Below, one piece after another: positions 1,318 to 31,538 of a DNA stretch of 64,000 nt. This DNA is from a virus. Position 1 is the first letter of the stretch, and each line of letters starts with the position of its first letter. The DNA lies in the IMG/VR virus record IMGVR_UViG_3300008117_000445, positions 1-64,000 of that record. One strand, 5' to 3'. Position numbers and translations under genes: made by a program. The notes under the pieces were generated by a model. The model saw nothing but the letters and a program-made list of their open reading frames with translations, did not search any database and was not told where the DNA came from.

Positions 1318-1319
1318 TG

Positions 1320-1900
1320 GGAGTGTACACAGTAGAGTTCAGCTTGAGAACAGATGTAACACACACTTTAAAGGGGGTTACAAGGTGTTAAGCCGTTTAT
1401 CAGATTTGGTCGTTAAAATCTGCCGTTGTTGATGAGATAGGTTTAACGTATAAACTTTCCTCCGTGATGTTAGTGGGTTTGATCACCCCTTTCACGTAAA
1501 TGTGATGAAACGAAACCCAAAGGAGTAGTCACAACTTGCGGGTATAGCATAAAATTAATGCTTCGCCATCTATCCGCTCAAAATGAAACAACAGAAGACG
1601 AATTAGCGTCGTTGAAAGGAACCTTGGCTCTCACAAGATCGCAACTTTTACTGAGAGTTGGAATGCCCCAAGGTACTCTGTTCAGATCCCTGCTCTGATG
1701 TGCACGTCAACAGGTTATGGGGAACAAACCATAAGTAAAAATCGTAGAAATGTTTCATTCTTATTAAATGGGAAAGAGATGCCCGAAGTTTTTAAGTTTC
1801 CTTCATAAAAACTTAACGAGAGTGGTACTAACGCGTGAAAATAGTACTCATTGGGAATCGGTTTGGAATATCCTCCTCTCCCCCAAGTATAAGGATTGAC
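1320..1900 (+). ncRNA. ORF-free structured RNA segment (unknown; not tRNA)
   Basis: many local hairpins (e.g. GCGGGTA...TATCCGC mini-helix at ~1541-1583), no ORF, GC-enriched. Confidence 0.25.
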
Positions 1901-1902
1901 TT

Positions 1903-1978
1903 TTTTAAAGGGGATGCCCAGCAGGTTTTTGAAAAAGAAAAACCGATGTAACTACTCACCAGTAATCTCAAGGTGGGG
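1903..1978 (+). ncRNA. conserved ~75-nt element, copy 1 (GGGGATGCCCrGCAGGTTTTT...AAAAACCGAT.T.ACTACTC...)
   Basis: near-identical second copy at 8647-8722; contains GGTTTTT/AAAAACC hairpin. Confidence 0.4.
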
Positions 1979-1984
1979 AAATTT

Positions 1985-2061
1985 GGGGGTGTAGCTCAAT
2001 TGGCTGAGCGGCTCGTTTGCAACGAGAGGGTTTTATGTGGGTTCAAGTCCCACCTCCTCCA
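1985..2061 (+). tRNA. tRNA-Ala (anticodon UGC)
   Basis: acceptor GGGGGTG/CTCCTCC with G3:U70 Ala identity pair; D-arm GCTC-AATTGGCT-GAGC; anticodon loop TTTGCAA; T-arm GTGGG-TTCAAGT-CCCAC. Confidence 0.75.
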
Positions 2062-2156
2062 CAAAGTTCGGAGTAATTAACCGAACCTAACAAGAAGATG
2101 GGTCATATAGCCTAAGGAAATTTGGTACCACTAATTCCTGTCTGTCTTCTTGATTA

Positions 2157-2233
2157 ACTACTTATGGTGTAAATTGGATTGCACATCGGTCACTAAGGCC
2201 GAAGGGTTGTAGGTTCAAGTCCTATGGGTAGTT
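2157..2233 (+). tRNA. tRNA-like gene; anticodon loop reads CACUAAG (CUA in anticodon position: amber-suppressor-like), lacks U33
   Basis: acceptor CTACTTA/TGGGTAG (2 G:U), anticodon stem TCGGT/GCCGA, T-arm GTAGG-TTCAAGT-CCTAT. Confidence 0.4.
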
Positions 2234-2240
2234 CAAATAG

Positions 2241-2357
2241 TCAGGTGGCGAGAGGAACACGCCCCGAAAGTGGAGAGTAACAATACCAACGGGACTCACG
2301 GAGATACTGCGTCCACTGCTGATGGTATCTATCACCGGTTTAAATCCGGTCCTGACT
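2241..2357 (+). tRNA. atypical long (117 nt) tRNA-like gene, acceptor AGTCAGG/CCTGACT
   Basis: perfect 7-bp acceptor, D-arm GGCG-AGAGGAACA-CGCC, T-arm CCGG-TTTAAAT-CCGG, ~35 extra nt between D- and T-arms. Confidence 0.3.
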
Positions 2358-2524
2358 ACATGAAGGTAAAAATATGAAACTTGGTAGTTCTTGTGGATTA
2401 TGATTACCCTGAATGTTTTTACAACTTTCATTCAGAAACCAAAAAATAAATGTTGTTGCAGGTTTAATAAAGGAATGGAGGAAAGTCTAACTAACGAGTA
2501 CTTCATAACCTACTGTATAAAATA

Positions 2525-2609
2525 GTCAGGTGGCGGAATTGGAAGACGCTATCCATTGGAAAGGCTGAGTTAAAAACGGCATTCAAGGTTCAAATCCTTG
2601 CCTGACTAC
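2525..2609 (+). tRNA. 85-nt tRNA-like gene (type-II-sized), acceptor AGTCAGG/CCTGACT; loop TTGGAAA (GGA, Ser-like) but anticodon stem does not pair as read
   Basis: perfect acceptor and T-arm CAAGG-TTCAAAT-CCTTG; shares 5' 15 nt and 3' end with the 2241-2357 gene. Confidence 0.35.
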
Positions 2610-2792: not shown

Positions 2793-2981
2793 ATGACACT
2801 AAAAGAACAAATTAATGCCGACTTTATGTCCGCATTTAAGAACAAAGAAATGGATAAGAAAAACTTCCTTGGAGTTGTTAAAGGTGAAATCCAAAATGAA
2901 GAAGGAAGGAGTGGGACCGTAACTGATGAGGTTGTTTTGTCCATCTTAAAGAAAATAAACCACCCATCGGCTAAAGACCAA
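2793..2981 (+). pseudogene. yqeY: 5' fragment of yqeY-like (GatB/YqeY-domain) gene, truncated by the IS insertion
   Basis: MTLKEQINADFMSAFKNKEMDKKNFLGVVKGEIQNEEGRSGTVTDEVVLSILKKI matches the YqeY N-terminal consensus (M.LKE.I..D.K.A.KAKDK.....L..A.KNEEI..G..LTDEEVL.VIKK); ORF then runs into IS sequence. Confidence 0.5.
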
Positions 2982-4385
2982 TGGGTTTTGTAGGATTAAT
3001 CCTAACTGGGTGGTTTATAACACCGCTTACATCCGTAAGAGATAAATCTCCATCAGATTTACTTTTATATTTTCTTAATATATTACAAGCACCATTCACA
3101 TCAGCATTAATTAATTTACCTTTTTTTGTTCTAAATAAACCTCGTTTAATGCGTTTACCTAAATATTCTTCGTGTTTCTCTATTTTTTCCAAATCCAACG
3201 ACGAACATTTTGATGTGTATGATTCTTCCTGTAGAACATAATTAATTCCGTAATATTCACATTTTGTTTCTAATTTTCTTTTTAAAATACCAAATGGTAC
3301 CGAAACAAAGTTCTGATTATTTACTTTACCGATATTAATTTCATTTTTCATACCTTTAAAATCACCTATAACTATTGTACCAATATCGTTATTAATACAA
3401 TATTTAACTATTTTATTCACACTCTGATTAAAGTAGTTATTTATATAATTTTTTCTATATTCACTTAATTTAATAAATTTTTTTGTGTTTTTATCTTTTA
3501 ATTTATTTTTTTCATATTCACTTTGTAATCTAGCTTTTTCTTTATTGTAATGATGGTTTACAGATTTAAGTGGTTTACCATCTATAATAAATGATGATTT
3601 ATTTTTAGTGTTATAAGATGTCAAAAGATTATCCAATCCACAATCAATACTTAATATATTATTATGGTTTAATTTCTTTACATTATCTTCAGCAACATAT
3701 GTTATAATTAACTCATACTCTTTACCACCATAAATGGGTTTAATCTGTAATTGTTGTAATTTATTGGTTTTAATATTTTTCGGTAGGTTAAATATGATAT
3801 CACGTTTTAATACATTATATTCTTCTCTAAATTGTTTACTAAGACCCATATATATTTTACCATTTTTAACCCTAGAACTTCTACCGGCAACTAATACTGA
3901 CCACCCAGAATCCTTATCTAAATAAGATGGGACATTAACCGGATTAGAGTACTTACCTTTTTGTTTTAATTTAAGTAATGAGAAAAATGATTTAAAATTT
4001 CTATCAACTAACCTATGTGTTTGTTGTGCGGAGTCTGTTATAAGTAATTTATAGTTCACATCATCTTTAATTAAATGATATTGATCAACATAATTTAAAT
4101 AAGAATTATTATTAAAGTAATACTGTCTAATGTTATAAACACAACTATTATATAAACGAGCAGAATGATATGATAACTTATCTATAATAAATTTTTCATC
4201 TTCATTCAATTTAAGTTTATATTTTTGTGTTAACATCATAATCTCCTATATATAAATATAGGGAAAGTGTGAAAAAACTTGTTTTATATAAAAAAAATAT
4301 TATATTTTAATCATTAACTAAAACATAAAGAAGGAAAAGTGATTCGTTTCCTCCCACAAACTAAAGATTTGTGGGTTTCCACGAA
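2960..4385 (-). mobile_element. IS200/IS605-family element, TnpB-only (IS1341-like), no tnpA
   Basis: tnpB ORF plus subterminal imperfect hairpins: CCCACAAActaaagaTTTGTGGG at 4349-4371 (left end) and CCACCCA...TGGGTGG near 2960-3015 (right end); flanked by the two yqeY fragments. Confidence 0.6.
2971..4239 (-). CDS. tnpB: TnpB/OrfB RNA-guided endonuclease (IS605 family)
   Basis: RuvC-I ILSIDCGLDNLLT, RuvC-III NADVNGACNILRK (DxDxNAAxNI consensus), C-terminal Cys/His zinc-finger region, N-terminal QKYKLKLNEDEK typical of OrfB. Confidence 0.75.
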   Translation of the reverse strand: MMLTQKYKLKLNEDEKFIIDKLSYHSARLYNSCVYNIRQYYFNNNSYLNYVDQYHLIKDDVNYKLLITDSAQQTHRLVDRNFKSFFSLLKLKQKGKYSNPVNVPSYLDKDSGWSVLVAGRSSRVKNGKIYMGLSKQFREEYNVLKRDIIFNLPKNIKTNKLQQLQIKPIYGGKEYELIITYVAEDNVKKLNHNNILSIDCGLDNLLTSYNTKNKSSFIIDGKPLKSVNHHYNKEKARLQSEYEKNKLKDKNTKKFIKLSEYRKNYINNYFNQSVNKIVKYCINNDIGTIVIGDFKGMKNEINIGKVNNQNFVSVPFGILKRKLETKCEYYGINYVLQEESYTSKCSSLDLEKIEKHEEYLGKRIKRGLFRTKKGKLINADVNGACNILRKYKSKSDGDLSLTDVSGVINHPVRINPTKPIGL

Positions 4386-4570: not shown

Positions 4571-7500
4571 TTAGTTTGTACCTTTTTCACCGTAAACAAG
4601 GATTTTATTTCCTGTTAATGGTGGAACTGTAAACGTAACAACTGTTCCGTCAAATGTATAGTCTTCAGTCTCTGTTTGACCAAGACCATTCAACATCACA
4701 AGTTCAGTTCCAATGATGATTTCATCATTCAAAGTGAACGCTGAGATTACACCATTTGGAGTTCCAGCATATCCAATTCTTTGGAATGAATTTGTATCCA
4801 GACCAGCAATCGCATCATCAACATATAGTTTTGTAACCAACGTTAAATCATCAAACTGAGTCAATCCAGATGGTTGAGCTGTCAATCTAATATTATCAGA
4901 CATTGTTAAACCTGTTGTATAGAACTCAGCAAGGTTTGATCTGTTGTTGTTATCAGCACCATTACCAATAATTGCAAGTTGAGTGTCACCAGATACGTTA
5001 AATGTTCCTTGAACGTGTTGTGCTCTACCTGCTGCAATTGTTCCTTCACCTTCAGCATGCGAATAATCGCTTGTCCTTCAGCGTGAGAATATAATCCAGA
5101 TGCGATTGTTGAAGCACCTTCAGCGTGAGAATATAATCCAGATGCCGTTGTATTATAACCTTCAGCGTGAGAATAATATCCAGATGCCGTTGTTAAATAT
5201 CCTTCAGCGTGAGAATAATTTCCTAATGCCGTTGTTGCATAACCTTCAGCGTGAGACATATCACCAACAGAAGTTGTATTAAATCCTTCAGCGTGAGAAC
5301 CAACACCAATTGCATAACCTCCAGCAAAATCATTAGCTTGATCTCCACCTTCTGCGTGAGAGTTAACACCTTCAGCTATTGTTTTGTATCCTTCAGCGTG
5401 AGAAGCATATCCTGATGCCGTTGTTGTATTACCTTCAGCGTGAGAAACATATCCGGACGCCGTTGTTGATCTACCTTCAGCGTGAGAATAATTTCCAGAT
5501 GCCGTTGTGTAATAACCTTCAGCGTGAGAACCTAAACCAACAGAAGTCGTCTGAATACCTTCAGCGTGAGAACCATACCCGGAGGCTGTTGTAGATGAAC
5601 CTTCAGCGTGAGAATAATTTCCAGATGCAGTTGTAGAATTACCTTCAGCGTGAGAACTTTGACCCAATGCCGTTGTGTAATTACCTTCAGCGTGAGAATA
5701 ATTTCCAGATGCCGTTGTCTGAATACCTTCGGCGTGAGAAGCACTACCTATAGCTACTGAGTAATTACCTTCAGCGTGAGAACCATTACCAACAGAAGTT
5801 GTCTGAATACCTTCAGCGTGTGAACTTTGACCCAATGCCGTTGTTCCAATACCTTCAGCATGAGAATAATATGCGGATGCTGTCGTTAAAGAACCTTCAA
5901 CGTGAGAATGATATCCAGATGCCGTTGTTAATCTACCCTCAGCGTGAGAATAATTTCCAGATGCCGTTGTTCCTTCACCTTCAGCGTGAGAATAATTTCC
6001 AGACGCAACGGTATTATAACCTGACGCAGTTGAATTTAAACCACTTGCCGTTGAACCAGTTGTTCCAAGAACGATTGAACCCTCAAATGTTCTGGTACCA
6101 CCACTATTTGCTGCAACAACTTGTTTTAACTCAAGTTTGTTATCACCATTTACAATTACGGTAACACCATCAGCATCAGCAAGACCATCAATTTCATTTT
6201 CTAATGATGTGTCAGCACTTGCTCTTACACTTTCTTCAGTTGAAACTCTTGAATCCAATGATCCTTCCGCACTTTCTGCTCTTGAAGTTTCAGAAGAAAC
6301 TTTTGAATCTAATGAGCCTTCAGCAGATTCTGCTCTTGAAGTTTCCGTAGAAACTTTTGAATCTAATGAACCTTCAGCTGACTCAGCTCTACTAACTTCT
6401 TGAGAAATTAAAGCTTCAAGTGAATCGTCACCTGATTCGTTACTTGAAATTCTCGCAGATAATGAATCTTCAGCTGACTCCGCTCTTGAAGTTTCTGTAG
6501 ATACTTTACTGTCTAAAGAACTATCAGCAGATTCTCTGTTTGAAACCTCAGTAGAAATATCAGATGAAATCTTAGAATCCAATGAACCTTCAACACTTTC
6601 AGCTCTTGACGTTTCGTTAGAAACTTTTGAATCTAATGAAGTTTCAGCTGAATCTCTTTTACTTTCTTCAGTTGAAATTCTGGACTCAAGCGAATCTTCA
6701 GTACTTTCCGCTCTTGATGTTTCTGTAGAAACTTTTGAATCCAAAGAACCTTCAGCGGATTCCGCTCTACTAACTTCTTGAGAAATTAAAGCTTCAAGTG
6801 AATCATCACCAGATTCGTTTTGAGAAATTCTAGCAGATAATGAATCTTCAGCAGATTCTGCTCTACTTGTTTCAGAAGATACTTTACTGTCTAATGAACC
6901 TTCAGCAGATTCTGCTCTTGAAATCTCGTTAGAAACTTTTGAATCCAATGAACCTTCAGTAGATTCTGCCCTTGAAGTCTCGTTAGAAACTTTTGAATCT
7001 AATGATCCTTCAGCACTTTCAGCTCTACTTGTTTCGTTAGAAACTTTTGAATCCAAAGAACTATCAGCAGATTCTCTGTTTGAAGTTTCAGAAGAAACTT
7101 TTGAATCCAAAGAACTATCAGCAGATGCTCTGTTACTTTCTTCAGTAGATACTCTAGAATCTAATGAACCTTCAGCAGATTCTGCTCTTGATGTTTCTTG
7201 AGAAATCAACGCTTCCAATGAATCATCACCTGATTCGTTACTTGAAATTCTTGCAGATAATGAATCTTCAGCAGACTCAGCTCTACTTGTTTCGTTAGAA
7301 ACTTTTGCATCCAATGAATCGTCACCAGAAACTCTGTTTGAAATCTCAGCAGAAATTTCAGAAGAAATTTTTGAATCTAATGATCCTTCAGCACTTTCAG
7401 CTCTTGAAGTTTCAGTTGAAACTTTTGCATCCAATGAATCGTCAGCAGATTCTCTTGTACTTTCTTCAACAGATACTCTGTCGGTTAATGAGCCTTCAGC

Positions 7501-7818
7501 CGATTCGGCTCTTGATACTTCAGACGATAAGTCTGCTTCAAGAGAATCATTACCTGATACTCTGTTTGAGATTTCAGTTGAAATCTCGGATGAAATTTTG
7601 TTATCCAATGAACCTTCAGCTGATGTTGCTCTGGACGTTTCATTTGATACTTTCGCATCCAATGAAGCATCACCAGAGATTCTGCTAGAATCCTGACTGG
7701 ATAAGGTTGAACTTAACTCCGCGATATCCGTAATTGTTAAACCGGATGGAGTTAAAATCGTTGCGTTCGTCAGCAATAAGTCGGACTGACGGTCTAATAC
7801 AATTTTAGTTTCTGCCAT
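4571..7818 (-). CDS. tail-fibre / adhesin-like repeat protein (~1080 aa if read through); frame broken at ~5055-5080 inside the repeat array
   Basis: N-terminal ~36 x 14-aa repeats (SRAESAEGSLDSKVSxET), then ~28 x 14-aa Hep_Hag/YadA-head-like repeats (TTASGNYSHAEGxx, 42-nt DNA period), then non-repetitive C-terminus in frame of ORF 4571..4903; one repeat unit is 26 nt instead of 42. Confidence 0.6.
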
Positions 7819-8760: not shown

Positions 8761-9690
8761 TTAGATACTTAATAACATATCCATTAATTCTTGTTGTGGA
8801 AACATATCCACCTTGTCACGTCTTGTATTTGTGTGGGTATACATTCCCTTAACTCTACCATAATAAGCATTCTCATTAAATTCAAAACCACCAGCACCAT
8901 TCTTTCTTATTTCCTCAATCAACCCCTTTCTTACATCAATGTTATCTCTATTTGCAATAAATAAGATAAGATCTTTTAATACTTCCAACTGAGTGTCAGA
9001 ATATCTATGCCAGGTTTTATGACCTCTAAATGGTTTATCCAATGTGGTAACGTGAGATTCAATTACTTCACCACCACCGTAGTTATAGAATTTATTGGCA
9101 TCTTTTGCTACCCAGGTTTTTCCCTTTCTATAACCACCTTTAGTTACATAACCATAATTACATACTTCAATACCAACGGAACATTTGTGCATATGCATTG
9201 AACCGTTATCACCCAAATGCCAACCATAACCACCATCCGGTATACATTTAACTATTTCACCATCATATTGGTCGTTCTTTCCGTTACAAGCAGGACCACC
9301 CAATACAAACTCAGTTGCGATTCTACCTCTGGTGTCCTTTGCCCACATATCAACCACTTGGTATGGGTTTGGTCCACCGGCCGTGTGATGCAAGAACAAA
9401 TATTCTTTATCTGTTGGTCCGGCCAAATATTCATCCTTTGGTAAAAAATATTGTTTGAATGACAATGTTTCGTTGTCTGAATTAAATTGTTCATTTAGAT
9501 CAGTTGTTGCAAGTCCCATCGCTTCCCAAGTTTTTGGTCCAACAATTCCATCATCTTTTAACTTATTTTCTTTTTGCCATTTTTTAACGGCCGCTTCGGT
9601 TTTTGGTCCAAAGTCACCATCATCACTAAGTTTTAAAAATCTTTGCAAGATTTTCACATTTTCTCCTTTACTTCCAAGTTTTAAAATCAT
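8761..9690 (-). CDS. endolysin: N-terminal peptidoglycan-binding repeats + N-acetylmuramoyl-L-alanine amidase (Amidase_2/PGRP-like)
   Basis: two PG_binding_1-like repeats (LKLSDDGDFGPKTEAAVKKWQ; LKDDGIVGPKTWEAMG); HHTAGG... and H/C-rich catalytic region. Confidence 0.6.
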   Translation of the reverse strand: MILKLGSKGENVKILQRFLKLSDDGDFGPKTEAAVKKWQKENKLKDDGIVGPKTWEAMGLATTDLNEQFNSDNETLSFKQYFLPKDEYLAGPTDKEYLFLHHTAGGPNPYQVVDMWAKDTRGRIATEFVLGGPACNGKNDQYDGEIVKCIPDGGYGWHLGDNGSMHMHKCSVGIEVCNYGYVTKGGYRKGKTWVAKDANKFYNYGGGEVIESHVTTLDKPFRGHKTWHRYSDTQLEVLKDLILFIANRDNIDVRKGLIEEIRKNGAGGFEFNENAYYGRVKGMYTHTNTRRDKVDMFPQQELMDMLLSI

Positions 9691-9766
9691 CTTATTTGTT
9701 TTTTTGTTTTTTATTTTCTAAATAAATATATATTTATATGTAAATAAACTTTTAAAATTTAGAATT

Positions 9767-9934
9767 ATGAATTTTACAAGAGAGCAAGTTTTGGGTATTG
9801 TTAGACACGTATTAACCTTCGCTGGTGGTATTGTAGTAGCCAAAGGAATTGCAGATGAAGCAACTGTAACTGAAGTTATCGGTGGTGTGATTACATTAAT
9901 CGGTGCTATTTGGTCAATCGTTGCAAAAAAATAA
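9767..9934 (+). CDS. small two-TM membrane protein (holin-like candidate), divergent from endolysin
   Basis: MNFTREQVLGIVRHVLTFAGGIVVAKGIADEATVTEVIGGVITLIGAIWSIVAKK; below the 60-aa track cutoff, read by hand. Confidence 0.35.
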   Translation: MNFTREQVLGIVRHVLTFAGGIVVAKGIADEATVTEVIGGVITLIGAIWSIVAKK

Positions 9935-9954
9935 TTTTATTTAATTTTTTTAAA

Positions 9955-9985
9955 TTTCCCCTTCTTAACCGGAGGGGTTTTTAAT
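9955..9985 (+). terminator. rho-independent terminator
   Basis: CCCCTtcttaaccggAGGGGTTTTT. Confidence 0.55.
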
Positions 9986-10017
9986 TTAACAGATATTTAT
10001 TAATTAAAACAAAAATT

Positions 10018-10629
10018 ATGGGAGATTACGTGGGAATTGTTGTTGCTTTTATTACTGGTGTTTTGGGTCCGTTATCAGTAATTTATTTAAAAAACTATTT
10101 GGACAAAAGAAAAAAGAAACCAGATATGGTTCACGACACATTAAGAGTTAGTGAATTAATTAATCAAAAAATTGAACATATCAAAGAGGAGTTTGATGCT
10201 GATAGGGTGTGGGTAACACAATTTCACAACGGAGGTAACTTCTACCCAACCGGAAAATCAATGGCGAAATTCTCAATTATGTATGAAACTGTAACTGCCG
10301 GAGTTAATTCAGTACAATCAAACTTTCATAATATTCCGGTAAATTTATTCTCAAAATCAATTAATGAACTATTGCAAAATGATGTCATTGAAATTGCGGA
10401 TTTTAAAGATGATTCAATTGCGACCTTTGGTTTAAAGTATATCGCCGAAGAATCAGGTTGTCAATCAGGTTATTTATTTGCAATTAAAACAATTGATGAA
10501 AGATTCATCGGTACCTTGGGACTTGATTATACAAAGAAAAAAATAAAACTTGACATTGAATCAATTAATCATTTAATGGTTCACGCTTCTTCAATCGGTG
10601 GTGTTTTAATTTCACACTTGGAACAATGA
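10018..10629 (+). CDS. membrane-anchored protein, possible GAF-like small-molecule-binding fold (weak)
   Basis: N-terminal TM helix; remainder resembles GAF-type sensor domains loosely. Confidence 0.45.
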   Translation: MGDYVGIVVAFITGVLGPLSVIYLKNYLDKRKKKPDMVHDTLRVSELINQKIEHIKEEFDADRVWVTQFHNGGNFYPTGKSMAKFSIMYETVTAGVNSVQSNFHNIPVNLFSKSINELLQNDVIEIADFKDDSIATFGLKYIAEESGCQSGYLFAIKTIDERFIGTLGLDYTKKKIKLDIESINHLMVHASSIGGVLISHLEQ

Positions 10630-11270
10630 GAAAAAGTCTAATTATTGAACGACTTATTAAAAAAATCAAAAACAAATTAATTTCTGAAAGAAAATCAGAT
10701 CAACTATCATTATATATCTCAAGATTAATTATTAATCAATTTAAAAAGAAAGAAGATTTTCAACTTGAGGATCTTGAGTTTGAGAGGGGTGATGAATATG
10801 CCTTATTTAATTTATATTGTTATTTTATTGAAGATGAAAATCTAAACGAACCGTTCTCAATCAGAGCTGAGGCCGATATGGAAACAATGGAAATTGAAAT
10901 AACATTCAACCCAAGTTATTTTCCGGATGTTATGCAAGATTTGGTTGGTGAAGTCAAGGAAACGGTTGAACATGAACTTGAACATATTGAACAACAAAAC
11001 TTTGAGGATGTTGAATTGGCGGATAAAAGTACCGGTGAAGATTTTGTTGAATATTTAACATCAGACAAAGAAGTCCCAGCGTTTGTTAGAGGATTAATCA
11101 AAAGGGCAAAAACCAAAAAGATTTCATTGAACAAAGCAATGAACGAATGGTTTAATGAAAATTTCAGACAATTTAACGACCCTTCAACTGAATGGCCAAT
11201 GGTTAAAGATGTGTGGATGGAATATGCCACCGAAATGCGAGAAAAAGAAAAAATCAAAAAATTTAATTAA
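10626..11270 (+). CDS. hypothetical acidic protein
   Basis: 214-aa ORF, 4-nt overlap with upstream gene. Confidence 0.45.
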   Translation: MRKSLIIERLIKKIKNKLISERKSDQLSLYISRLIINQFKKKEDFQLEDLEFERGDEYALFNLYCYFIEDENLNEPFSIRAEADMETMEIEITFNPSYFPDVMQDLVGEVKETVEHELEHIEQQNFEDVELADKSTGEDFVEYLTSDKEVPAFVRGLIKRAKTKKISLNKAMNEWFNENFRQFNDPSTEWPMVKDVWMEYATEMREKEKIKKFN

Positions 11271-17200: not shown

Positions 17201-17599
17201 ATGAAAAAAATAATTTTAAGTTTAGCACTTTTGTGTGGTAAAACAAGTTTCGCACAATTAGATTACGTCAAGAATTTCAAAAAAAATGAATATGGACTTT
17301 ATGAGTTGAGTTTCAAAGATCCTATCCAGGCTATACATGAATACAATAATGTTCTAGATAAAAATGGTTCCGACACGCTTAACGTTGTTTATAATATAAC
17401 TAAAAACCCAATTGATTTTGGTTTTTTTAGTAACGACCCAAATAGTGATAACATTATCGTTAGTATATTTTTAAGAGAAAATAACAAATACAAAATAATG
17501 TTTGGTGAAATTGACGGAACTATTGATAAGTATTTTTTTGAAGTAATTGACCAAAATGGTGTTATTACTGATTTATATTATAGGACACATAAAAAATAA
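17201..17599 (+). CDS. secreted protein, paralog A (signal peptide MKKIILSLALLCGKTSFAQ)
   Basis: signal peptide; paralogous to 17603..17992. Confidence 0.5.
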   Translation: MKKIILSLALLCGKTSFAQLDYVKNFKKNEYGLYELSFKDPIQAIHEYNNVLDKNGSDTLNVVYNITKNPIDFGFFSNDPNSDNIIVSIFLRENNKYKIMFGEIDGTIDKYFFEVIDQNGVITDLYYRTHKK

Positions 17600-17602
17600 A
17601 AT

Positions 17603-17992
17603 ATGAAAAAAATAATTTTAACAGTTGCGTTATTTTGTACTACAACCATAAATGGTCAAGTGAAACATTTAGATGGTTTTGAAAAAACAAAATTAGGTCA
17701 CATCAGAACTGTATTTACAGAAGATGAGGCCATTAAAACATTCAGTTATGTGATGGATATGAATGGAATTGACACTGTACAATCTAAATACACAAGAGGA
17801 GACAATCCGGTAGCGTTTAGTTTTTTTAAAACGGATGAAAAATCAAAGAAAGTTAATGTTGCCGCAATCATTCACTATGATGGTGTTTATGATGTTTTAT
17901 TTATGACCATCAAAGACCAAAATACAGTTTTATTTAATGTTAAAGATAAGAATGGTGAAATAATTGAATTAATATACGAAAAACCAGAATAA
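17603..17992 (+). CDS. secreted protein, paralog B (signal peptide MKKIILTVALFCTTTINGQ)
   Basis: same length and architecture as 17201..17599. Confidence 0.5.
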   Translation: MKKIILTVALFCTTTINGQVKHLDGFEKTKLGHIRTVFTEDEAIKTFSYVMDMNGIDTVQSKYTRGDNPVAFSFFKTDEKSKKVNVAAIIHYDGVYDVLFMTIKDQNTVLFNVKDKNGEIIELIYEKPE

Positions 17993-18305: not shown

Positions 18306-18584
18306 ATGAAAAAAATATTAATCTTCAGTTTAATTTTAACATCTTGTAAAACTCAAGATATTGTTCAGTACGAAAAAAACAAATCAGTAGTCGTGAGTTG
18401 GGAAACCAATAGTCAAACTTTTGATGTTTATAGATCTGATTCGTTGGTAGTACAGAAAATACCTTGTGATGGCATCAATCAATTAACCTTACATAATTAT
18501 GACCAAGGTGACTATAAATTCATTTTCAAAAATGATGGTGTTGTTACTGAAGAAAAACTAATTAAAATTGTTGATAAAAAATAA
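18306..18584 (+). CDS. lipoprotein (lipobox LTSC)
   Basis: MKKILIFSLILTSCKT. Confidence 0.5.
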   Translation: MKKILIFSLILTSCKTQDIVQYEKNKSVVVSWETNSQTFDVYRSDSLVVQKIPCDGINQLTLHNYDQGDYKFIFKNDGVVTEEKLIKIVDKK

Positions 18585-24151: not shown

Positions 24152-24463
24152 ATGAAATTAGGAGAATTCATAGAAAAATTTAGTCATAATAATTTGATTA
24201 GATTACATTACAAGGAAAAAGGTGGAAACCGACTTGTATTGGAAGATTGGAATGATGTGTCAATGGACTGGGAAGTTAATAAACAAAAAGGAAAGTTCAG
24301 ACATTATGTAAATAATGAAGTATTGAGCCTTGCCAGTATTTACTTTCCACCAGGAATGAACCATCGTTATCCGGAAGCAATCAATATTGTAATTGAAGAA
24401 TTGGAAAATCAACCTATGATTGATGAGGTTGAAGATGAAATAAATTATGAATCAGCAGGATAA
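24152..24463 (+). CDS. hypothetical protein
   Basis: 103-aa ORF. Confidence 0.4.
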   Translation: MKLGEFIEKFSHNNLIRLHYKEKGGNRLVLEDWNDVSMDWEVNKQKGKFRHYVNNEVLSLASIYFPPGMNHRYPEAINIVIEELENQPMIDEVEDEINYESAG

Positions 24464-25020
24464 TGAAAGACATAGGTTTAGAAATAACAAAAGAAGAGAT
24501 CCAAGAAATTGAAAGATTAACCGGAGGAAAAATTGGGACACACACATTTGGACCAAACAACGAATACACATTAGAAAATTCATTCTTATCACTTGATGGG
24601 ACATACATTGGTAGTATGGACGAAGCAAGATGGTACGTGAAAAACAAAATGATGGTAGATGAAAAATACCCACATGGAGTTGCCGCAGTTATTACCGAAG
24701 AAACATATGGAACCGATAAACCTGTTATTGAAGGAATGTATGGGTATACGCATAGAGGAGGAAATCTATTTAAAATTGGTGATAGGTTGTTTGATGAAAA
24801 ATACAAACCAACCAAAGAAGATTATCCTAAAGATGAATGGAATGAATATGAAACCAGATTTAAAGAACTTTATGAGTCAGAAGATGAACTTGGAAAAAGA
24901 TGGATGGATGCTGACGGAATATCATATGTGATACCTTATAAATTAAGAGGTTCAAGAATCATTGAAACAATGGAAGATGCGTTTGAAGCAGCCAAAAATA
25001 TGTCAAATTATTTAAGTTAA
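24463..25020 (+). CDS. hypothetical protein
   Basis: 185-aa ORF. Confidence 0.45.
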   Translation: MKDIGLEITKEEIQEIERLTGGKIGTHTFGPNNEYTLENSFLSLDGTYIGSMDEARWYVKNKMMVDEKYPHGVAAVITEETYGTDKPVIEGMYGYTHRGGNLFKIGDRLFDEKYKPTKEDYPKDEWNEYETRFKELYESEDELGKRWMDADGISYVIPYKLRGSRIIETMEDAFEAAKNMSNYLS

Positions 25021-25024
25021 TATT

Positions 25025-25531
25025 ATGAACGAAAAACAAACTTACGACTACGGATGTGTAATGTTATATTTTGATTTCCCTGAGATCAAAAACCTACATT
25101 CACTAATTGATGAAGAAGACATCTACACCGAAGATGGTGATAGAAGTTTTGGTTTAGAAGACGAACCACACACCACATTACTCTATGGATTGCATGATGA
25201 TGTTACTGAAGGTGATGTTGCAGATGTGATAAACAACTTTGATTATGGAACTTGTAGAATTACAAATCCATCTTTATTTGAAAATGAAAAATATGATGTT
25301 TTGAAGTTTGATACTAGTGGACCAAACTTACATGAAACAAATAAAGAGTTATCAAATTATCCACACACAACATCATTTCCTGACTACCACCCCCATTTAA
25401 CAATCGGTTATTTAAAATCAGGAATGGGTAAGAAATATGCAAATAAATTAAAAGGAATCCAATTCAAATTGGAACCAACCCATGTTGTATATTCTATGGC
25501 AAATGGAGATAAAATAAATTATAACATATAA
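25025..25531 (+). CDS. 2H phosphoesterase superfamily (LigT / 2',3'-cyclic phosphodiesterase-like)
   Basis: two H-x-T-x motifs: EPHTTLLYGL and HPHLTIGY. Confidence 0.55.
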   Translation: MNEKQTYDYGCVMLYFDFPEIKNLHSLIDEEDIYTEDGDRSFGLEDEPHTTLLYGLHDDVTEGDVADVINNFDYGTCRITNPSLFENEKYDVLKFDTSGPNLHETNKELSNYPHTTSFPDYHPHLTIGYLKSGMGKKYANKLKGIQFKLEPTHVVYSMANGDKINYNI

Positions 25532-25546
25532 TTAAATAATTAAAAT

Positions 25547-26230
25547 ATGTTAGGACTAAAAAAGGTTGAACCCGGTAGATGGAAAAATGATTGGATGGAA
25601 TTTTATCCCGGATTTCACAAGTGGAACTTTAGGTACCTACCAAGTAATGGGTTAAATTGGAAATTGGATTTTTGTTTTATTTGGGGGCAATTTTATATGA
25701 CGTTCAAAACAAACAAACCACCAAAATATAAAGATGAAAGACCAACATATGGATTTTATTTTTATTCTGTAAGTAATTGGTTTCCTGATTCATTATGGTT
25801 CCACAGAGGAACTAAAAAAATAAAATGTATAGATTTACCTTGGCAATATGATTGGGTTAGAACTTCCGTATTTTTAAAGGATGGAACTTGGACTCACGAT
25901 ACTAAAAAAAATAAAACGGACTTTTATGACCCAAAGTTTAAAAATAAAATACATACAGAAAAACATACCTATTATTATATCCACGATGGTATTTTTCAAG
26001 AAACCGAAGCCATTTGTACACTAGAAGAACGAGAATGGAGACCCAAATGTTTTAAATGGACTGGTTTGTTTAAAAAAGTAAGAACAACTATTGACGTTGA
26101 ATTTACAAATCCCATCGGTAGTGGTGTTAACACATATAAAGGTGGTACTTACGGTGCCGGACATGATATTAAAAAAGGTGAAACAATTAGGGATTGTCTA
26201 ATAAGGATGATGGACGAAAGAAAGTTTTAA
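25547..26230 (+). CDS. hypothetical protein (Trp/Tyr-rich)
   Basis: 227-aa ORF. Confidence 0.45.
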   Translation: MLGLKKVEPGRWKNDWMEFYPGFHKWNFRYLPSNGLNWKLDFCFIWGQFYMTFKTNKPPKYKDERPTYGFYFYSVSNWFPDSLWFHRGTKKIKCIDLPWQYDWVRTSVFLKDGTWTHDTKKNKTDFYDPKFKNKIHTEKHTYYYIHDGIFQETEAICTLEEREWRPKCFKWTGLFKKVRTTIDVEFTNPIGSGVNTYKGGTYGAGHDIKKGETIRDCLIRMMDERKF

Positions 26231-26232
26231 AC

Positions 26233-26862
26233 TTATTTTATAACCACTTTTTCACCACCCCCCCTTATTAACCCATTAACCGATTTTAGATCCGAAATTA
26301 TAATTTTCCCATCCAAGTTTGAACCAACCCAAACGTATTTCTTTTTTCCAATGAACAAAACTTTAAAAAACTTGGATGGTATTGGAATTTTACTACCACC
26401 CATATAGTTAACACCATCATAAATAACACCAGTTATAATAACCACATCTTTTTTGTATTTGGAAACAGAATCCTCAACTGATCTCTCCAACCTCATCCAA
26501 GAACCCCTATTAAATTTTGGTAACTGAGGTACCGAATTAAACAAACTAAACGATCTATAATTAAGTTCATTGTCATATGATGTGATGTGTGATGGTGTTA
26601 AATGTCCCATATCATATCCGGATTTGTAGTAGTATTTTGTGTCGTACTTATCAACAAATACGTCCTGAAACCAGTTGTCACTTCTTTCTTTGTCAAGTTT
26701 TAAAAAATCAACATATTTTAGTTTGTGTATGGATATAAAAGTACACGTATCTTTTGTTAATATGAGTGTCATATCACCGTGGTTGATTTTTATATTGTTT
26801 GTTTTAATTGTTTGACAAAAATAGTTAAGTGATATTAGTAGGAAGAATAATAATGTTCGCAT
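26233..26862 (-). CDS. secreted DNA/RNA non-specific endonuclease (Endonuclease_NS-like)
   Basis: signal peptide MRTLLFFLLISLNYFCQ; GYDMGHLTPSH resembles the DRGH active-site motif. Confidence 0.5.
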   Translation of the reverse strand: MRTLLFFLLISLNYFCQTIKTNNIKINHGDMTLILTKDTCTFISIHKLKYVDFLKLDKERSDNWFQDVFVDKYDTKYYYKSGYDMGHLTPSHITSYDNELNYRSFSLFNSVPQLPKFNRGSWMRLERSVEDSVSKYKKDVVIITGVIYDGVNYMGGSKIPIPSKFFKVLFIGKKKYVWVGSNLDGKIIISDLKSVNGLIRGGGEKVVIK

Positions 26863-26983
26863 AATGAATCTTTAAAAATAAATATTAATCTTTAGTAAAG
26901 AAATAGTCGTTGGCTGTAAATATATGTCAAAATGTTTGGTCAGATTAAATATTATCATTATATTTGTTCATATTTATTAATTG

Positions 26984-28453
26984 ATGAAGTATTTACTTTC
27001 CATATTGACACTTATTGTAACTTTTTTTACTGTAGCACAAATTACAGCAAACGGAAATTCTGGAGTTAGACCAACGGTTTATACAAACGGATCACCAAAC
27101 AATTCAATCTTTATTTGGTGTGGTGTAGGAAATAATGGCTCATTGACTTATACACCAACTTCCGGAACGGCACCTTATACATTCAACTGGTTCTCATATT
27201 CCAATACAACTTTTTCTTGGAATACATTAACCACCCAAAACGGCGCAACATCTACTTTAAATAATTTGTCTAACGGTGGTTATAGAATTGAGGTTTATTC
27301 ATCAAACGGTACATTGGTTGGTTGTGATATTGCTTGGGTTTGGAATGTAAATAATCAAGTTACAGCCTCAAACACACAAGTTAGTTGTGGGTCAACAAAC
27401 TTAATTGGAACCAATACAGTTACACCAACATCGTTTACTTATTATAATCCACCACCACCACAATCAATAATAAACACCAACACAACAATTAAAGTTTGTT
27501 TTACCGGAAATCACACTTGGGTTTCAGATTTGGGATTCTATTTAATTGGACCGGCTTCTTGTGGTAGCCCAGTGATTACCTTATCACCAAATCCAGGATC
27601 CAATAGTCAAGGTAGTATTTGTAATGGTGGAAACAACTTCAATAACCTTTGTTTTACAAATGCGGCAAGTCCCAATTTAAATGTATGTTCATCACCAACA
27701 CCATTAACTGGAACTTATGATTCGTATGGACCAACTCCGGGAACCAATATTAATTTTTCACCACTTATTGGTTGTAACGCGGCACAAGGTGGTTGGAGAG
27801 TTCAGGTGTTTGATTGTATTTCATCCGATGTTGGTAAGTTAACTAATGCAAACATAACTTTTTCAAATTTAACATCCATTTGTGGTTCACCAACAACCAT
27901 AACTTATAGTTCAGGAACAATAAATTCAAACATAAATGATAATTCATGTTCACAAGCGACGGCATCCGTTTATCAGGTACCACCACCGACAAATTTAACA
28001 ACACCAATAACAATAAATGGTACCACCACAATTCAATGGACAAGTAATCCATCGGCAACAATTGCAAATTCAACAAACCTTAATACAACGACAACAAACG
28101 TGACACAACAAACAACATTTACTTTAACTTCAACATTCAGTGTAGGTGGAACAAATGTTTGTGTTTCAACAGCTCAAACAACCTTTACACCAACACCATT
28201 AACCGCCAACTTTACGTTTGTTAATCCATCTTGCTTTGGTTTGTGTGACGGTTCGGCAACCGCAACGCCAACATCAGGAACTTTACCTTATATATATGTT
28301 TGGACACCAAGTGGTTCCACACAAACAATATCTAATTTATGTTCCGGAACATATAATGTAACGGTCACTGACGCTAATGGTTGTACTGTAAGTGGAAGTG
28401 TAACCTTAACGGACCCAAATCAGTTAATATTAACCCCAATAAACCATAATTAA
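26984..28453 (+). CDS. secreted SprB-repeat / Ig-like-domain protein (Thr/Asn/Gly-rich)
   Basis: signal peptide; repeated ..[10 protein letters not shown].., ..[27 protein letters not shown].. SprB-like repeats. Confidence 0.5.
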
Positions 28454-28464
28454 ATCTAAACACC

Positions 28465-29040
28465 ATGAAAAAAGTAATTTTAATTTTAGCTCTTTTAGTA
28501 TCAAGCTCTTTGTTCTCACAACTTGTAACAACAAACCCTGATACGGTCTGTTTCCAATCAACAACACTATCCACTTATACAGTACAAAATATCGGTTCGG
28601 GGACCTATACGTGGACAATACCAGGTTCAGCAACCCTAGTTTCTGGACAAGGAACAAACTCAATCCAAGTGGATTGGTCAGCAACACCAGCCGGTCTTAT
28701 AAATAACGCCATATCTGTAACATATACTTCGGGTTCTGGATGTCAAGCTCAACCGGTAACATTAAACGTGTTGATCTACCAATTCACACCAACTATTGCT
28801 GCTTTAGGTCCATTTTGTGAATCTGATCCTTGTGTTACTTTGGTTGGTTCACCGGTTGGTGGTACTTGGTCTGGAACCGGAGTCTCTGGAAATCAATTTT
28901 GTCCAGATAACGTGGCAAACGGAACGAACGCAATTTCCAATGTGACATATACTGTAACAAATGGTGGATGTACGTTCTCAACTTCAACAACAGTACCAGT
29001 ATTTGGTACACCAACTTTATCACCAATTCAACATAACTAA
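28465..29040 (+). CDS. secreted Ig-like repeat protein
   Basis: signal peptide MKKVILILALLVSSSLFSQ; C-terminus TLSPIQHN parallels LTPINHN of upstream gene. Confidence 0.5.
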   Translation: MKKVILILALLVSSSLFSQLVTTNPDTVCFQSTTLSTYTVQNIGSGTYTWTIPGSATLVSGQGTNSIQVDWSATPAGLINNAISVTYTSGSGCQAQPVTLNVLIYQFTPTIAALGPFCESDPCVTLVGSPVGGTWSGTGVSGNQFCPDNVANGTNAISNVTYTVTNGGCTFSTSTTVPVFGTPTLSPIQHN

Positions 29041-29043
29041 AAT

Positions 29044-29610
29044 ATGAAATTTATTTCATCCATATTGGTTTTAATCATATGTTTTGTTTCTTCAGCACAA
29101 GATACACTTGAGATCTGTGCTGGGGAACCCAAAACGGTTAGCTATTTTGCCTCATCAACGAGTGATGGTGAAAATACCTGGAAGGTCAATGGTGAAACAT
29201 TTATTGGTGATGAATTAACTTATACTTATACTCAAGGTGGTTTATACAATATAACTGTACGTAGAGAAAATTGGTTATGTTATGTTGAACAAACACTCCA
29301 AGTTTTTGTAAGTGAATGTCCAGGTGTTACTTTTTGGGTACCAAACACATTTACACCAGATGGTGACGAATTTAATCAATATTTTGGCCCAGTAATGAAT
29401 GAAGGATTTGATGTTGATGGTTATTCGTTTTTGATTTTTAACAGATGGGGTGAAACCATATTTAGTTCATCTGACCCAAATGGAAAGTGGGATGGTATGT
29501 ACAATAACGTTTTATGTCAATACGGAACTTATAGTTGGGTGTTAAGGTTTAATGTTAAAGGTGATGATGGTGTCATTCAAAAATCAGGTAATGTTAATTT
29601 ACTTCGTTGA
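29044..29610 (+). CDS. protein with T9SS type-B C-terminal sorting domain (gliding motility-associated CTD)
   Basis: signal peptide + C-terminal VPNTFTPDGDEFNQYFGP...FNRWGETIF...DPNGKWDGMYNNVLCQYGTYSWVL. Confidence 0.6.
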   Translation: MKFISSILVLIICFVSSAQDTLEICAGEPKTVSYFASSTSDGENTWKVNGETFIGDELTYTYTQGGLYNITVRRENWLCYVEQTLQVFVSECPGVTFWVPNTFTPDGDEFNQYFGPVMNEGFDVDGYSFLIFNRWGETIFSSSDPNGKWDGMYNNVLCQYGTYSWVLRFNVKGDDGVIQKSGNVNLLR

Positions 29611-29613
29611 TTG

Positions 29614-30231
29614 TTAGTCCCACCACCATCTCATTCTTTCTTTTAAAATTTTAAACAATAAATTATGCGCTTTTTCTTGATTATGTTTTGAAACATAATG
29701 ACATAAATCTCTTTTATTTAGATTGGGATTTTCTTTTAATATTTTACGGACACTTGATGGGTATTTTTTTAAAAAATCATCATAAGTCTCACTTGAAACC
29801 TCTATATCTGCGGACCTAAGATTTTCATTACCTTCAACCGGTTTAAATACAACATCAGAGTCTTCATAATCAAGATATTCAGTGTTGTAGTATTCGTCTT
29901 TAACTCTTTCAATTAGGTTTAAAACAATAGTCATATCACGATTATCTCTATCAACCTCCATATGACGATTTGCATAGATAATTTCTTTTCTTTGAAATTC
30001 TATTTTCTTTTGAAGGATTGTAAAAATATACCAGTCATCCCAATCCTTATCTTTATATAAAGTTGGTATCCATCTAAAGATATTTTTTATACCTCCGATA
30101 AAGTATCTTATTCTCCAATTTGTGTTTCGCCATATGAATGGAAATACCCCCTTTCTATTCCAAGCGGATTCTTCAGGTATTGTTAGTTTCTTGTAATTTT
30201 TCATTGTATTGTAAATATAACGAAAAAACAA
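29614..30231 (-). CDS. hypothetical protein (possibly continuous with the overlapping TM ORF 30173..30376 via frameshift)
   Basis: 205-aa ORF; upstream overlapping ORF encodes hydrophobic helices. Confidence 0.4.
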   Translation of the reverse strand: MFFRYIYNTMKNYKKLTIPEESAWNRKGVFPFIWRNTNWRIRYFIGGIKNIFRWIPTLYKDKDWDDWYIFTILQKKIEFQRKEIIYANRHMEVDRDNRDMTIVLNLIERVKDEYYNTEYLDYEDSDVVFKPVEGNENLRSADIEVSSETYDDFLKKYPSSVRKILKENPNLNKRDLCHYVSKHNQEKAHNLLFKILKERMRWWWD

Positions 30232-30388
30232 CCAAAAAGTTAATAGTTAAACTCAAAAAAATCTCAAATAAATAATGCCAATTTGTTTGTGTTAAGGAAA
30301 CGTGGGTTCCAAACCACATAAATGAACCATATTTGTTCATAACTTCAATTAGTAGATATTTCAAAAAGTTTTTCATATATTTATAATT

Positions 30389-31049: not shown

Positions 31050-31538
31050 ATGAAAAAGAGGTTAACATTTATATCGGATACACATACAAAACACAATTTG
31101 TTGGATGGGTTTTTACCTGGTGGTGATATATTGTTGTGTGCTGGAGACATATCCAGTCGTGGTTATGTTACCGAATTAGAGAATTTCTTTGGATGGTATG
31201 ATAAAATAGATAACTACGACACAAAAGTTTTTATCGCAGGTAATCATGATTTTGGGTTCCAGGATGATCCAGAAAAAATAAAAGGTTTGCTCACCGGTTA
31301 TAAAACAATAGACTACCTTCAAGATGATTGGATGTTGGTTGGTGAGGATTATGATAAATTGGTTAAAATCTGGGGTAGTCCATGGCAACCTGAATTTCAT
31401 AATTGGGCATTTAATTTACCTCGTGGTGAAAAACTAATGGATAAGTGGAACTTGATACCAAAAGATGTTGATATACTTGTAACTCACGGACCCGCTTTTG
31501 GTAAATTAGATTTTGTTCCATATGACAGAAACAAATGA
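31050..31538 (+). CDS. metallophosphoesterase (calcineurin-like)
   Basis: DTHTKHN, GDISSRG, GNHD motifs. Confidence 0.6.
   Translation: MKKRLTFISDTHTKHNLLDGFLPGGDILLCAGDISSRGYVTELENFFGWYDKIDNYDTKVFIAGNHDFGFQDDPEKIKGLLTGYKTIDYLQDDWMLVGEDYDKLVKIWGSPWQPEFHNWAFNLPRGEKLMDKWNLIPKDVDILVTHGPAFGKLDFVPYDRNK

Follow-up and report, generated by a model that had tools for sequence, protein, structure and literature searches.

Type B cargos of the T9SS (type IX secretion system) are known or predicted adhesins that need a shuttle of the PorP/SprF family, the gene of which usually lies directly downstream (PMC12618676, PMC9143113); 'orphan' type B cargos share a host shuttle (PMC12618676). T9SS cargo has also been noticed in phages: the 'Cryophage' (Bellas et al. 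2020, PMC7468147) carries type A sorting domains on enzymes and on a PA14 protein, which was called a unique occurrence, and gut phage contigs carry T9SS sorting-domain proteins (de Jonge et al. 2019, PMC6949934). This cargo has been proposed to hijack the secretion of the host, be it for surface functions, for secreted ones or to influence superinfection (PMC7468147, PMC6949934). Since both studies noted it at the annotation level, phage-encoded T9SS cargo is not new as a general idea; the literature that we searched contains no report of a type B sorting domain in phages, of phage T9SS cargo derived from a host adhesin, or of a fission into three parts in which the heads are exchangeable and the terminal tag is universal. 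Here we analyze such a case, located in a 64,000-nucleotide (nt) stretch of viral DNA (positions 1 to 64,000 of IMG/VR record IMGVR_UViG_3300008117_000445), hereafter the window, where three consecutive plus-strand genes, which we call head, stalk and anchor, lie next to a divergent nuclease gene. We favor the reading, with a probability of about 0.55, that positions 26981..29610 constitute a phage-borne, host-derived T9SS type B surface-fiber module, split into three co-transcribed, Sec-exported polypeptides that would be re-joined via their tails. The features that this reading concerns are listed below, lengths being given in amino acids (aa).

26233..26862, minus strand: nuclease open reading frame (ORF), 209 aa
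26863..26980, no strand: divergent intergenic region between nuclease and head, 118 bp, presumed promoter region
26981..28453, plus strand: head ORF, 490 aa (gene callers start at the ATG at 26984, giving 489 aa)
28436..28450, plus strand: head tag P-I-N-H-N (..TPINHN), TAA stop directly after
28465..29040, plus strand: stalk ORF, 191 aa
29023..29037, plus strand: stalk tag P-I-Q-H-N (..SPIQHN), TAA stop directly after
29044..29610, plus strand: anchor ORF, 188 aa
29338..29601, plus strand: type B sorting domain of the anchor, residues 99–186

Domain composition and origin of the three proteins

All four ORFs that a first-pass annotation of this DNA had listed are present with the above coordinates, and all domain calls made for them, including those with the TIGR04131, PF13585 and SprB models, lie above the curated cut-offs, which are 23 bits for Endonuclease_NS (PF01223), 28 for SprB (PF13573), 25 for PKD_6 (PF19408), 27 for CHU_C (PF13585) and 35 for TIGR04131. 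The three plus-strand genes form one unit. Note that a scan for sigma-70-style promoters and terminators gave counts at chance level, Bacteroidota-type promoters being outside the scope of the tool.

The anchor consists of a signal peptide (..SSA before the Gln), a PKD-like N-domain (approximately residues 20–95) and a type B sorting domain. The latter, claimed beforehand for the 188-aa protein, is recognized behind the Sec signal peptide by two profiles, CHU_C with 46.3 bits and TIGR04131 with 36.4 bits, the second match covering profile positions 3–83 of 85 and residues 99–186 of 188. TIGR04131 is matched by 17/17 members of the anchor family (best E 6e-11), across which the N-terminus MKFISSILVLIICFVSSA, followed by the Gln, is also kept. 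The head and the stalk gave no CHU_C, TIGR04131 or Por_Secre_tail match with the Pfam and NCBIfam profiles, so that the label 'T9SS cargo' originally put on the three proteins holds for the anchor, which carries a C-terminal domain (CTD), but not for its two partners. Neither of these two should be classed as T9SS cargo by itself; they would most plausibly reach the surface by another route, docking onto the anchor.

The head is Thr/Asn-rich as described in the first-pass annotation (Thr 18%, Asn 12.5%, Ser 11.5%) and matches SprB with 36.4 bits (residues 411–444 and a second stretch, near residues 411–480). It does not, however, consist mainly of SprB repeats, as had been thought: behind the signal peptide (..TVA before the Gln) come about four to five beta-sandwich domains resembling those of host adhesins; SprB repeats are confined to one region at the C-terminal end, followed by the tag. 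Over 474 residues, the signal peptide region among them, the head shares 49% identity with the N-terminal part (400 residues) of P0130, a 723-aa CHU_C protein of Fluviicola taffensis named for its 'gliding motility-associated C-terminal domain', and it shows similar identity to dozens of bacterial proteins of 715–827 aa that end in PKD and CHU_C. This resemblance to P0130 is the reason why we infer that the module is host-derived. The P0130 gene sits among an array of CHU_C adhesin genes, with no adjacent porP/sprF.

The stalk is composed of a signal peptide (..LFS before the Gln), a PKD_6 domain (38.7 bits), a second beta-sandwich and the C-terminal tag, in line with the Ig-like protein announced for this ORF. 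Its N-domain and that of the anchor are homologous (hhalign probability 95.5%). A sequence search of the head and the anchor against the PDB returned nothing significant. The AlphaFold2 (AF2) model of the head is all-beta, with a predicted local distance difference test score (pLDDT) of 89, and that of the stalk displays beta-sandwich domains with a pLDDT of 86. The best PDB matches of both models, obtained with Foldseek for the head, are Ig-like fiber segments of GhpA (the grappling hook that Aureispira secretes through its T9SS) and, after these, tandem domains of the fibronectin, cadherin and titin types; an enzyme fold was not found among the structure matches, and a virion chain of phage SU10 was present among the weak matches of the head.

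Signal peptides were judged heuristically, by means of a crude script and of conservation among homologs. All four proteins have a basic n-region, a hydrophobic core and Gln at +1, the residues before the cleavage site being ..FC in the nuclease, ..VA in the head, ..FS in the stalk and ..SA in the anchor. N-termini with signal peptides are kept in the homologs of the four proteins, and the separate signal peptide that each plus-strand gene had been said to encode was thus seen by both means. Gln at +1 is the pattern expected of Bacteroidota signal peptidase I substrates (the 'Q-rule'). The mature head, stalk and anchor contain 17, 6 and 4 Cys, respectively, and such an abundance fits export. 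As for the host, the CTDs of cellular proteins nearest to that of the anchor are 45–52% identical to it and come from Crocinitomicaceae and Taishania (the P0130 CTD is 33% identical). Together with the head identity to P0130 and the Gln+1 signal peptides, this sharpens the T9SS-bearing Bacteroidetes host proposed at the outset to what is probably a Fluviicola-like member of the Crocinitomicaceae.

In related phages, the same parts occur fused. A single 732-aa ORF of LR745206.1, with one signal peptide, has the order head domain, SprB repeat, stalk part, anchor part; the window stalk aligns with its residues 403–547 (45% identity, E 2e-26) and the window anchor with its residues 545–732 (38% identity, E 1e-37). 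A similar fused form of 740 aa exists at locus L048, and LR756502.1 encodes a 1670-aa SprB-repeat adhesin with CHU_C at its end, residues 176–331 of which match the 197-aa head type described below (40% identity, E 1e-25). Because both the bacterial and the fused-phage homologs are single ORFs, we take a single adhesin as the ancestral state; the phage lineage of the window has a fission product.

More than 40 contigs, viral or metagenomic and as long as 296 kb, carry the split form. At every split locus examined, the order is head, stalk, anchor, with gene gaps of −1 to 21 nt, and the lengths of the parts are fixed across hundreds of homologs; for instance, the best 120 of the 412 stalk homologs are all 181–202 aa long. 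Heads vary between loci, with at least five unrelated types (197–199, 422–425, 488–490, 632 and 661 aa), all of them tagged, whereas the stalk and the anchor are conserved. The median pairwise ratio of nonsynonymous to synonymous substitution rates (dN/dS) is 0.14 for the head, 0.16 for the stalk and 0.24 for the anchor, values which indicate that the split form is maintained under purifying selection.

The window itself is phage DNA. Its G+C content ranges from 28 to 36%, its ORFs are small and mostly on the plus strand, and it contains an RNA ligase, a TnpB-like transposase, an endolysin-like gene, a tRNA cluster and, according to the annotation taken from the identical contig L002, an I-TevI-like GIY-YIG homing endonuclease and a thymidylate synthase. 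In the module region, the G+C content is slightly higher and the GC skew is reversed. The cassette is present at 98–100% identity in at least five metagenome contigs of the Joint Genome Institute (JGI); an alignment-based scan with the stalk found relatives on 36 viral contigs of IMG/VR, the longest having 296 kb, and cassette relatives are also present in two deposited genomes of uncultured huge phages (635 and 642 kb). This gene content and these relatives identify the window as DNA of a phage, probably one of jumbo size; the phage origin assumed by the first-pass annotation is likewise upheld by the Tad6 and Acb3 families and the Acb1-like gene described below. A single-protein pattern scan of IMG/VR with the anchor gave no match, nor did a comparison of the region with 50,697 phage records at the DNA level. 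A scan of 185,579 species-representative cellular genomes, based on two exact peptide patterns, did not detect the stalk family.

The terminal tag and the proposed fiber assembly

The head and the stalk share the C-terminal motif P-I-x-H-[N/D]. It ends 19/20 phage-type head homologs and, in the form P-I-[QK]-H-[ND], 120/120 of the best stalk family members, and it is found on all five unrelated head types, whatever the fold. Among 478 fetched proteins, the motif is C-terminal in 138 and internal in a single one, an unrelated nuclease homolog; it never occurs inside an adhesin, with 0 occurrences in 64,000 residues of bacterial-type adhesins. Its codons vary synonymously, from which it follows that the constraint acts on the peptide, while the stop codon is always TAA. 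In the AF2 models, the last ten residues of the head are coil with a pLDDT of 67, and residues 181–191 of the stalk are coil with a falling pLDDT; given the confidence of the rest of these models, the tag looks like a free tail. The tag-equivalent positions of the fused proteins are linkers that run into a PKD-like domain, the first junction of the fused huge-phage adhesins reading ..LIAPPIVSPPIV.. in place of the tag. With homologous N-domains in the stalk and the anchor, the most economical interpretation has every tail docking on whichever PKD-like domain came next in the fused ancestor. The tag would thus probably dock head to stalk and stalk to anchor, the whole fiber using the CTD of the anchor.

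In the scheme that we propose, the variable distal head is a copy of a Fluviicola-type CHU_C adhesin head plus one SprB repeat. Once the signal peptides have been cleaved in the periplasm, the tail of the head would dock on the PKD-like N-domain of the stalk and the tail of the stalk on that of the anchor, which would rebuild the fiber non-covalently. The type B CTD of the anchor would then be recognized by the SprA translocon of the host, which according to the literature passes folded substrates, and by a host shuttle of the PorP/SprF family, which would export the assembly and keep the fiber on the surface of the infected cell. The split design would allow heads to be swapped by recombination. 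Most likely, the fiber would remodel the surface of the infected cell, either by sustaining or adding adhesion or by masking or mimicking a receptor so as to limit superinfection. In flavobacteria, it is T9SS and gliding surface components that decide on phage susceptibility (10.1101/2020.10.02.323337, PMC9804748). A phage-made adhesin copy could therefore mask or replace a receptor; the fiber could instead maintain or add adhesion during a long infection.

A bolder and more tentative idea, which we would put at clearly less than even odds, is that P-I-x-H-[N/D] is a previously undescribed docking/sorting tag by which CTD-less, Sec-exported proteins join end to end on a small CTD carrier common to all of them and pass through the T9SS as hitch-hikers. 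Such a system would be a plug-and-play, phage-evolved display of interchangeable heads on Bacteroidota, in which the stalk possibly polymerizes like a pilus shaft.

Several points weigh against a tail-joined, T9SS-exported fiber. The function of the tag is read from conservation and position alone, and we found no experimental precedent in the literature for CTD-less partners that hitch-hike through the T9SS. The TIGR04131 score of the window anchor exceeds the cut-off by just 1.4 bits. No PorP/SprF shuttle gene was found near the module, and none of the seven signal-peptide ORFs flagged in the 64-kb window, except the head, is big enough for a shuttle barrel. The gene 3′ of the anchor encodes a convergent 205-aa cytoplasmic protein without Pfam match, which is not a shuttle, and a shuttle gene was likewise not found at the related loci examined, both huge-phage loci included. 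With no phage shuttle near the module, export would depend on a host shuttle; the anchor must then mimic a host CTD, which presupposes that its own CTD would match such a shuttle. Finally, a co-variation of Asn and Asp between head tag, stalk tag and stalk residue 101, perfect in 34 loci, had to be given up: 11/120 stalks are mixed, and locus L056 combines an Asn-tagged head with an Asp-tagged stalk. There is thus no co-evolution signal to mark a contact, and Asn and Asp look interchangeable. L056, the only locus with a mixed pair (head ..INHN, stalk ..IQHD), also has an extra 94-aa ORF between stalk and anchor (4084..4368).

Other explanations of the tag or of the split were discarded. An intein is incompatible with the absence of a HINT domain upstream of the His-Asn, where SprB, Ig or other beta-sandwich domains are found instead, and with the stop right after the Asn, which leaves no extein. 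The terminal His-Asn does not qualify as a PDZ ligand or as a substrate for ligation by an asparaginyl endopeptidase (AEP), since the C-terminus is not hydrophobic and a leaving group is absent. Read-through or recoding does not account for the split, because both stops are TAA while the suppressor-like tRNA of the window reads TAG, the head and the stalk are in different frames, and every piece has its own signal peptide.

Among the broader alternatives, the one that survives best, though we consider it unlikely, is that the three proteins act separately. The anchor would be the sole T9SS substrate, the head and the stalk staying in the periplasm or being released at lysis; the host-like head could serve as a decoy or dominant-negative form against the maturation or export of host CHU_C adhesins, which are possible phage receptors, and the tag could have nothing to do with the anchor, serving as a signal for retention, stability or the binding of a partner. 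This would agree with the lack of any CTD on the head and the stalk, with the mimicry of a host adhesin head down to the signal peptide region, with the missing precedent for hitch-hiking and with the control of flavobacterial phage susceptibility by T9SS/gliding surface components (10.1101/2020.10.02.323337, PMC9804748). Related phages and all bacterial homologs, however, have the same parts in one chain with a CTD, which argues that the ancestral, and presumably retained, site of action of the head is the cell surface. Moreover, separate action leaves unexplained both the invariant three-gene order with its −1 to 21 nt gaps and the presence of one and the same tag on two unrelated proteins, at the very place where the fused protein enters a PKD-like domain.

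The non-covalent docking that we favor also has a covalent counterpart, in which the terminal Asn/Asp and the His would serve to attach the protein to the next subunit or a surface acceptor through an isopeptide, ester or transpeptidation reaction, with an outcome analogous to SpyTag-type or sortase/PorU-type attachment. The last residue is only ever Asn or Asp, the penultimate His is invariant, and Asn and Asp seem interchangeable in nature, as L056 illustrates; known Lys-Asn and Lys-Asp isopeptide bonds use precisely Asn and Asp. Against this, nothing follows the Asn/Asp that could act as a leaving group, so that transpeptidation would lack an energy source, neither a CnaB-type fold nor a catalytic triad was identified, and no ligase gene was found in the cassette. 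We therefore regard covalent re-joining as improbable.

Still less probable is that the Ig-like proteins decorate the virion or form its fibers, as other phage Ig-like or BACON proteins do. Virions commonly bear Ig-like, PKD and BACON domains (PMC6949934), the SU10 virion chain is among the weak Foldseek matches, and large ORFs lie a few kb from the module at locus L006; but virions assemble in the cytoplasm, whereas all three proteins have conserved, cleavable Sec signal peptides with Gln+1 and many cysteines, and a sorting domain for an outer-membrane translocon points to export. Lastly, that the cassette is the decaying debris of a captured host adhesin gene, with stops in a former single ORF, or that the contig is bacterial, might be suspected from the single-ORF bacterial homologs and from the slightly higher G+C content and reversed GC skew of the region, but it is hardly credible, being already contradicted by selection and distribution data: dN/dS is 0.14–0.24 in all three genes, each piece has gained its own signal peptide and kept a fixed length over hundreds of homologs, the pattern-limited scan did not find the stalk family in 185,579 cellular genomes, the neighbors are phage anti-defense and T4-like genes, and the relatives are IMG/VR contigs and deposited phage genomes.

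The nuclease and other neighboring genes

The divergent nuclease matches Endonuclease_NS with 91.5 bits, and its sequence matches in the PDB are Anabaena NucA, EndoG and Serratia nuclease. The catalytic or metal residues His87, Asn118 and Glu126 are retained. The DRGH motif reads DMGH, and D[MILK]GH throughout the subfamily, i.e. the Arg is replaced; nuclease activity is thus plausible, not assured. Metagenome gene callers place the start at an internal Met, which gives a 179-aa protein without signal peptide. The closest homologs, however, align from residue 4–5 and retain the hydrophobic N-terminus with its signal peptide and Gln17, which supports the exported 209-aa form and, with it, the secreted Endonuclease_NS-like nuclease initially called here. 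Besides the signal peptide, no T9SS CTD or other outer-membrane export signal was found, and only about 35 residues follow the nuclease domain, which rules out a T9SS substrate. The protein is Sec-exported and probably periplasmic, since the host is Gram-negative and a CTD is lacking. There, it would degrade nucleic acid outside the cytoplasm, plausibly against incoming foreign DNA or for nucleotide scavenging.

The nuclease lies between an anti-defense cluster and the adhesin module. It is found beside the module, as is Acb3, only in the near-identical contigs L001–L004 and is absent at all other related loci, which is why we consider it an independent exported gene, a separate moron, and not a conserved partner of the adhesin module; the earlier view, in which the nuclease formed a functional set with the three proteins, is not sustained. 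The three consecutive genes upstream of it look like an anti-defense island (24463..26230). They and the two-gene unit on the other side of the module (29614..30376) are as follows.

24463..25020, plus strand: Tad6 (PF25188, Thoeris inhibitor), 55.4 bits (cut-off 27)
25025..25531, plus strand: 2H-phosphoesterase/Acb1-like (PF23474), 23.6 bits, below the cut-off of 27
25547..26230, plus strand: Acb3 (PF25187, inhibitor of the cyclic-oligonucleotide-based anti-phage signaling system, CBASS), 98.9 bits (cut-off 27)
29614..30231, minus strand: cytoplasmic protein of about 196–205 aa, rich in Trp, Lys and Glu, ending RWWWD, part of the two-gene unit
30173..30376, minus strand: protein of about 67 aa with a single transmembrane segment, part of the two-gene unit

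The two-gene unit has no Pfam or NCBIfam match. According to tblastn, a homolog of the 205-aa protein lies beside the module in about 32/44 loci, whichever the side and the orientation, and the fused form of L048 also has it as a neighbor; this cytoplasmic protein (about 196 aa) is more conserved than the adhesin. The unit may thus mark a conserved backbone position where adhesin variants are exchanged, rather than a functional linkage.

Around related modules, peptidoglycan hydrolase genes and proteins with type A CTDs are frequent. At three loci of divergent relatives (L052 3699..4829, L055 1..1507, L050 88..1512), the split type B module has as its immediate neighbor a protein with a type A sorting domain (Por_Secre_tail) or with a C-terminal end like that of type A, and these phages may carry small islands of T9SS cargo. 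Also, a protein of about 118–121 aa (..VDR[RK]I..S...G.SI..IQ.D...R..N..N..), detected by eye, follows the adhesin gene at L050 (4298..4654), L055 (4731..5087) and L011 (6434..6799); it is found in the D-type split clade and behind the 1670-aa adhesin of LR756502.1.

Other observations concern the rest of the window. Three small plus-strand ORFs (17201..17599, 17603..17992 and 18306..18584) have Bacteroidota-type signal peptides and no Pfam match; two are paralogs (..FA and ..NG before the Gln) and one is lipoprotein-like (..LTSC). They bring the exported proteins encoded by the phage in the window to at least seven. A 970-aa protein (4906..7818, minus strand) with YadA-head repeats (100 bits) and matches to PHROGs of unknown function may be a fiber or an adhesin-like structural protein. 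The tRNA cluster (1244..2609, plus strand) includes an amber-suppressor-like tRNA with anticodon CTA (2157..2234, tRNA-Pyl by ARAGORN) and two calls in which the anticodon loop is odd; TAG may be recoded in part of the genome, which is irrelevant to the cassette, where the stops are TAA. An IS605/TnpB-like transposase is encoded at 2971..4239 (minus strand), and in the near-identical contig L003 a Y1 transposase and an OrfB/Cas12f-like TnpB are inserted a few kb from the cassette (9642..11234), which suggests that IS200/IS605 elements are active in this phage population. Finally, the Metallophos phosphoesterase ORF at 31050..31538 (plus strand) is 162 aa long, compared with 214–232 aa in the near-identical L001–L003, and the window copy may be truncated or frameshifted.

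Comparison with known systems

The recognition and anchoring of type B cargos are still being worked out, and if the tag does bring about assembly and joint export, the T9SS would have its first example of cargo that is loaded piggy-back or in modules. In practical terms, a tag of 5–10 residues and a 169-residue carrier would then make a simple surface-display tool for Bacteroidota. That abundant freshwater phages of the jumbo type keep a host-like fiber under purifying selection while its heads are rapidly exchanged points to a deliberate remodeling of the infected cell surface, be it for adhesion, aggregation, receptor masking or superinfection exclusion. To our knowledge, this class of phage–host manipulation has barely been explored outside prophage morons. 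The module also provides a concrete host, a probable Fluviicola-like member of the Crocinitomicaceae, for an uncultured phage group.

The nuclease shares with Serratia nuclease, Anabaena NucA and the streptococcal prophage DNases the beta-beta-alpha-Me fold family, the signal peptide and the His/Asn/Glu residues. It differs from these secreted nucleases by the DMGH-type motif of its subfamily, in which the Arg of DRGH is replaced, by its Gram-negative host together with the lack of an outer-membrane export signal, and by its lytic-type, jumbo-phage-like genome.

The logic of the proposed assembly, and only the logic, recalls the type V pili of Bacteroidota (FimA/Mfa1), which are built by C-terminal strand exchange: the distal part would contribute a donor tail, the middle part both an acceptor and a donor, and the basal part an acceptor only, the donor element being C-terminal in both cases, with docking inferred for the module. 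Unlike the pili, the module has type I signal peptides with Gln+1 instead of lipoprotein signal peptides and shows no sign of an incomplete Ig fold; its proteins gave no FimA/Mfa Pfam match, their fold matches being generic tandem Ig domains and GhpA. A T9SS CTD would anchor the module, whereas a lipid anchors the pili.

Much closer are the bacterial type B adhesins, such as SprB of Flavobacterium johnsoniae or P0130, with which the module shares the Sec signal peptide, the strings of Ig-like, PKD and SprB-repeat domains and the type B domain at the extreme C-terminus. The module differs from them in that it is phage-encoded, is divided into three polypeptides, each with a signal peptide, and bears on its CTD-less parts the P-I-x-H-[N/D] tag, which is absent from the bacterial proteins. 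As in the 'orphan' type B substrates (PMC12618676), there is no adjacent porP/sprF-like gene. The fused adhesins of LR745206.1 (732 aa) and LR756502.1 (1670 aa) resemble the module in domain order, in their homologous stalk and anchor parts and in a homologous head type, and they too are phage-encoded, with a signal peptide and no adjacent shuttle gene; they are, however, single polypeptides devoid of internal signal peptides and P-I-x-H-[N/D] motifs. Finally, Cryophage and the gut phages are similar in that genes for T9SS sorting-domain proteins are carried by phages of Bacteroidota, in variable regions (PMC7468147, PMC6949934). Their cargo is of type A (Por_Secre_tail) and consists of enzymes or PA14/BACON proteins made as single polypeptides, whereas the module of the window is of type B, is copied from a host adhesin, and is both split and tagged.

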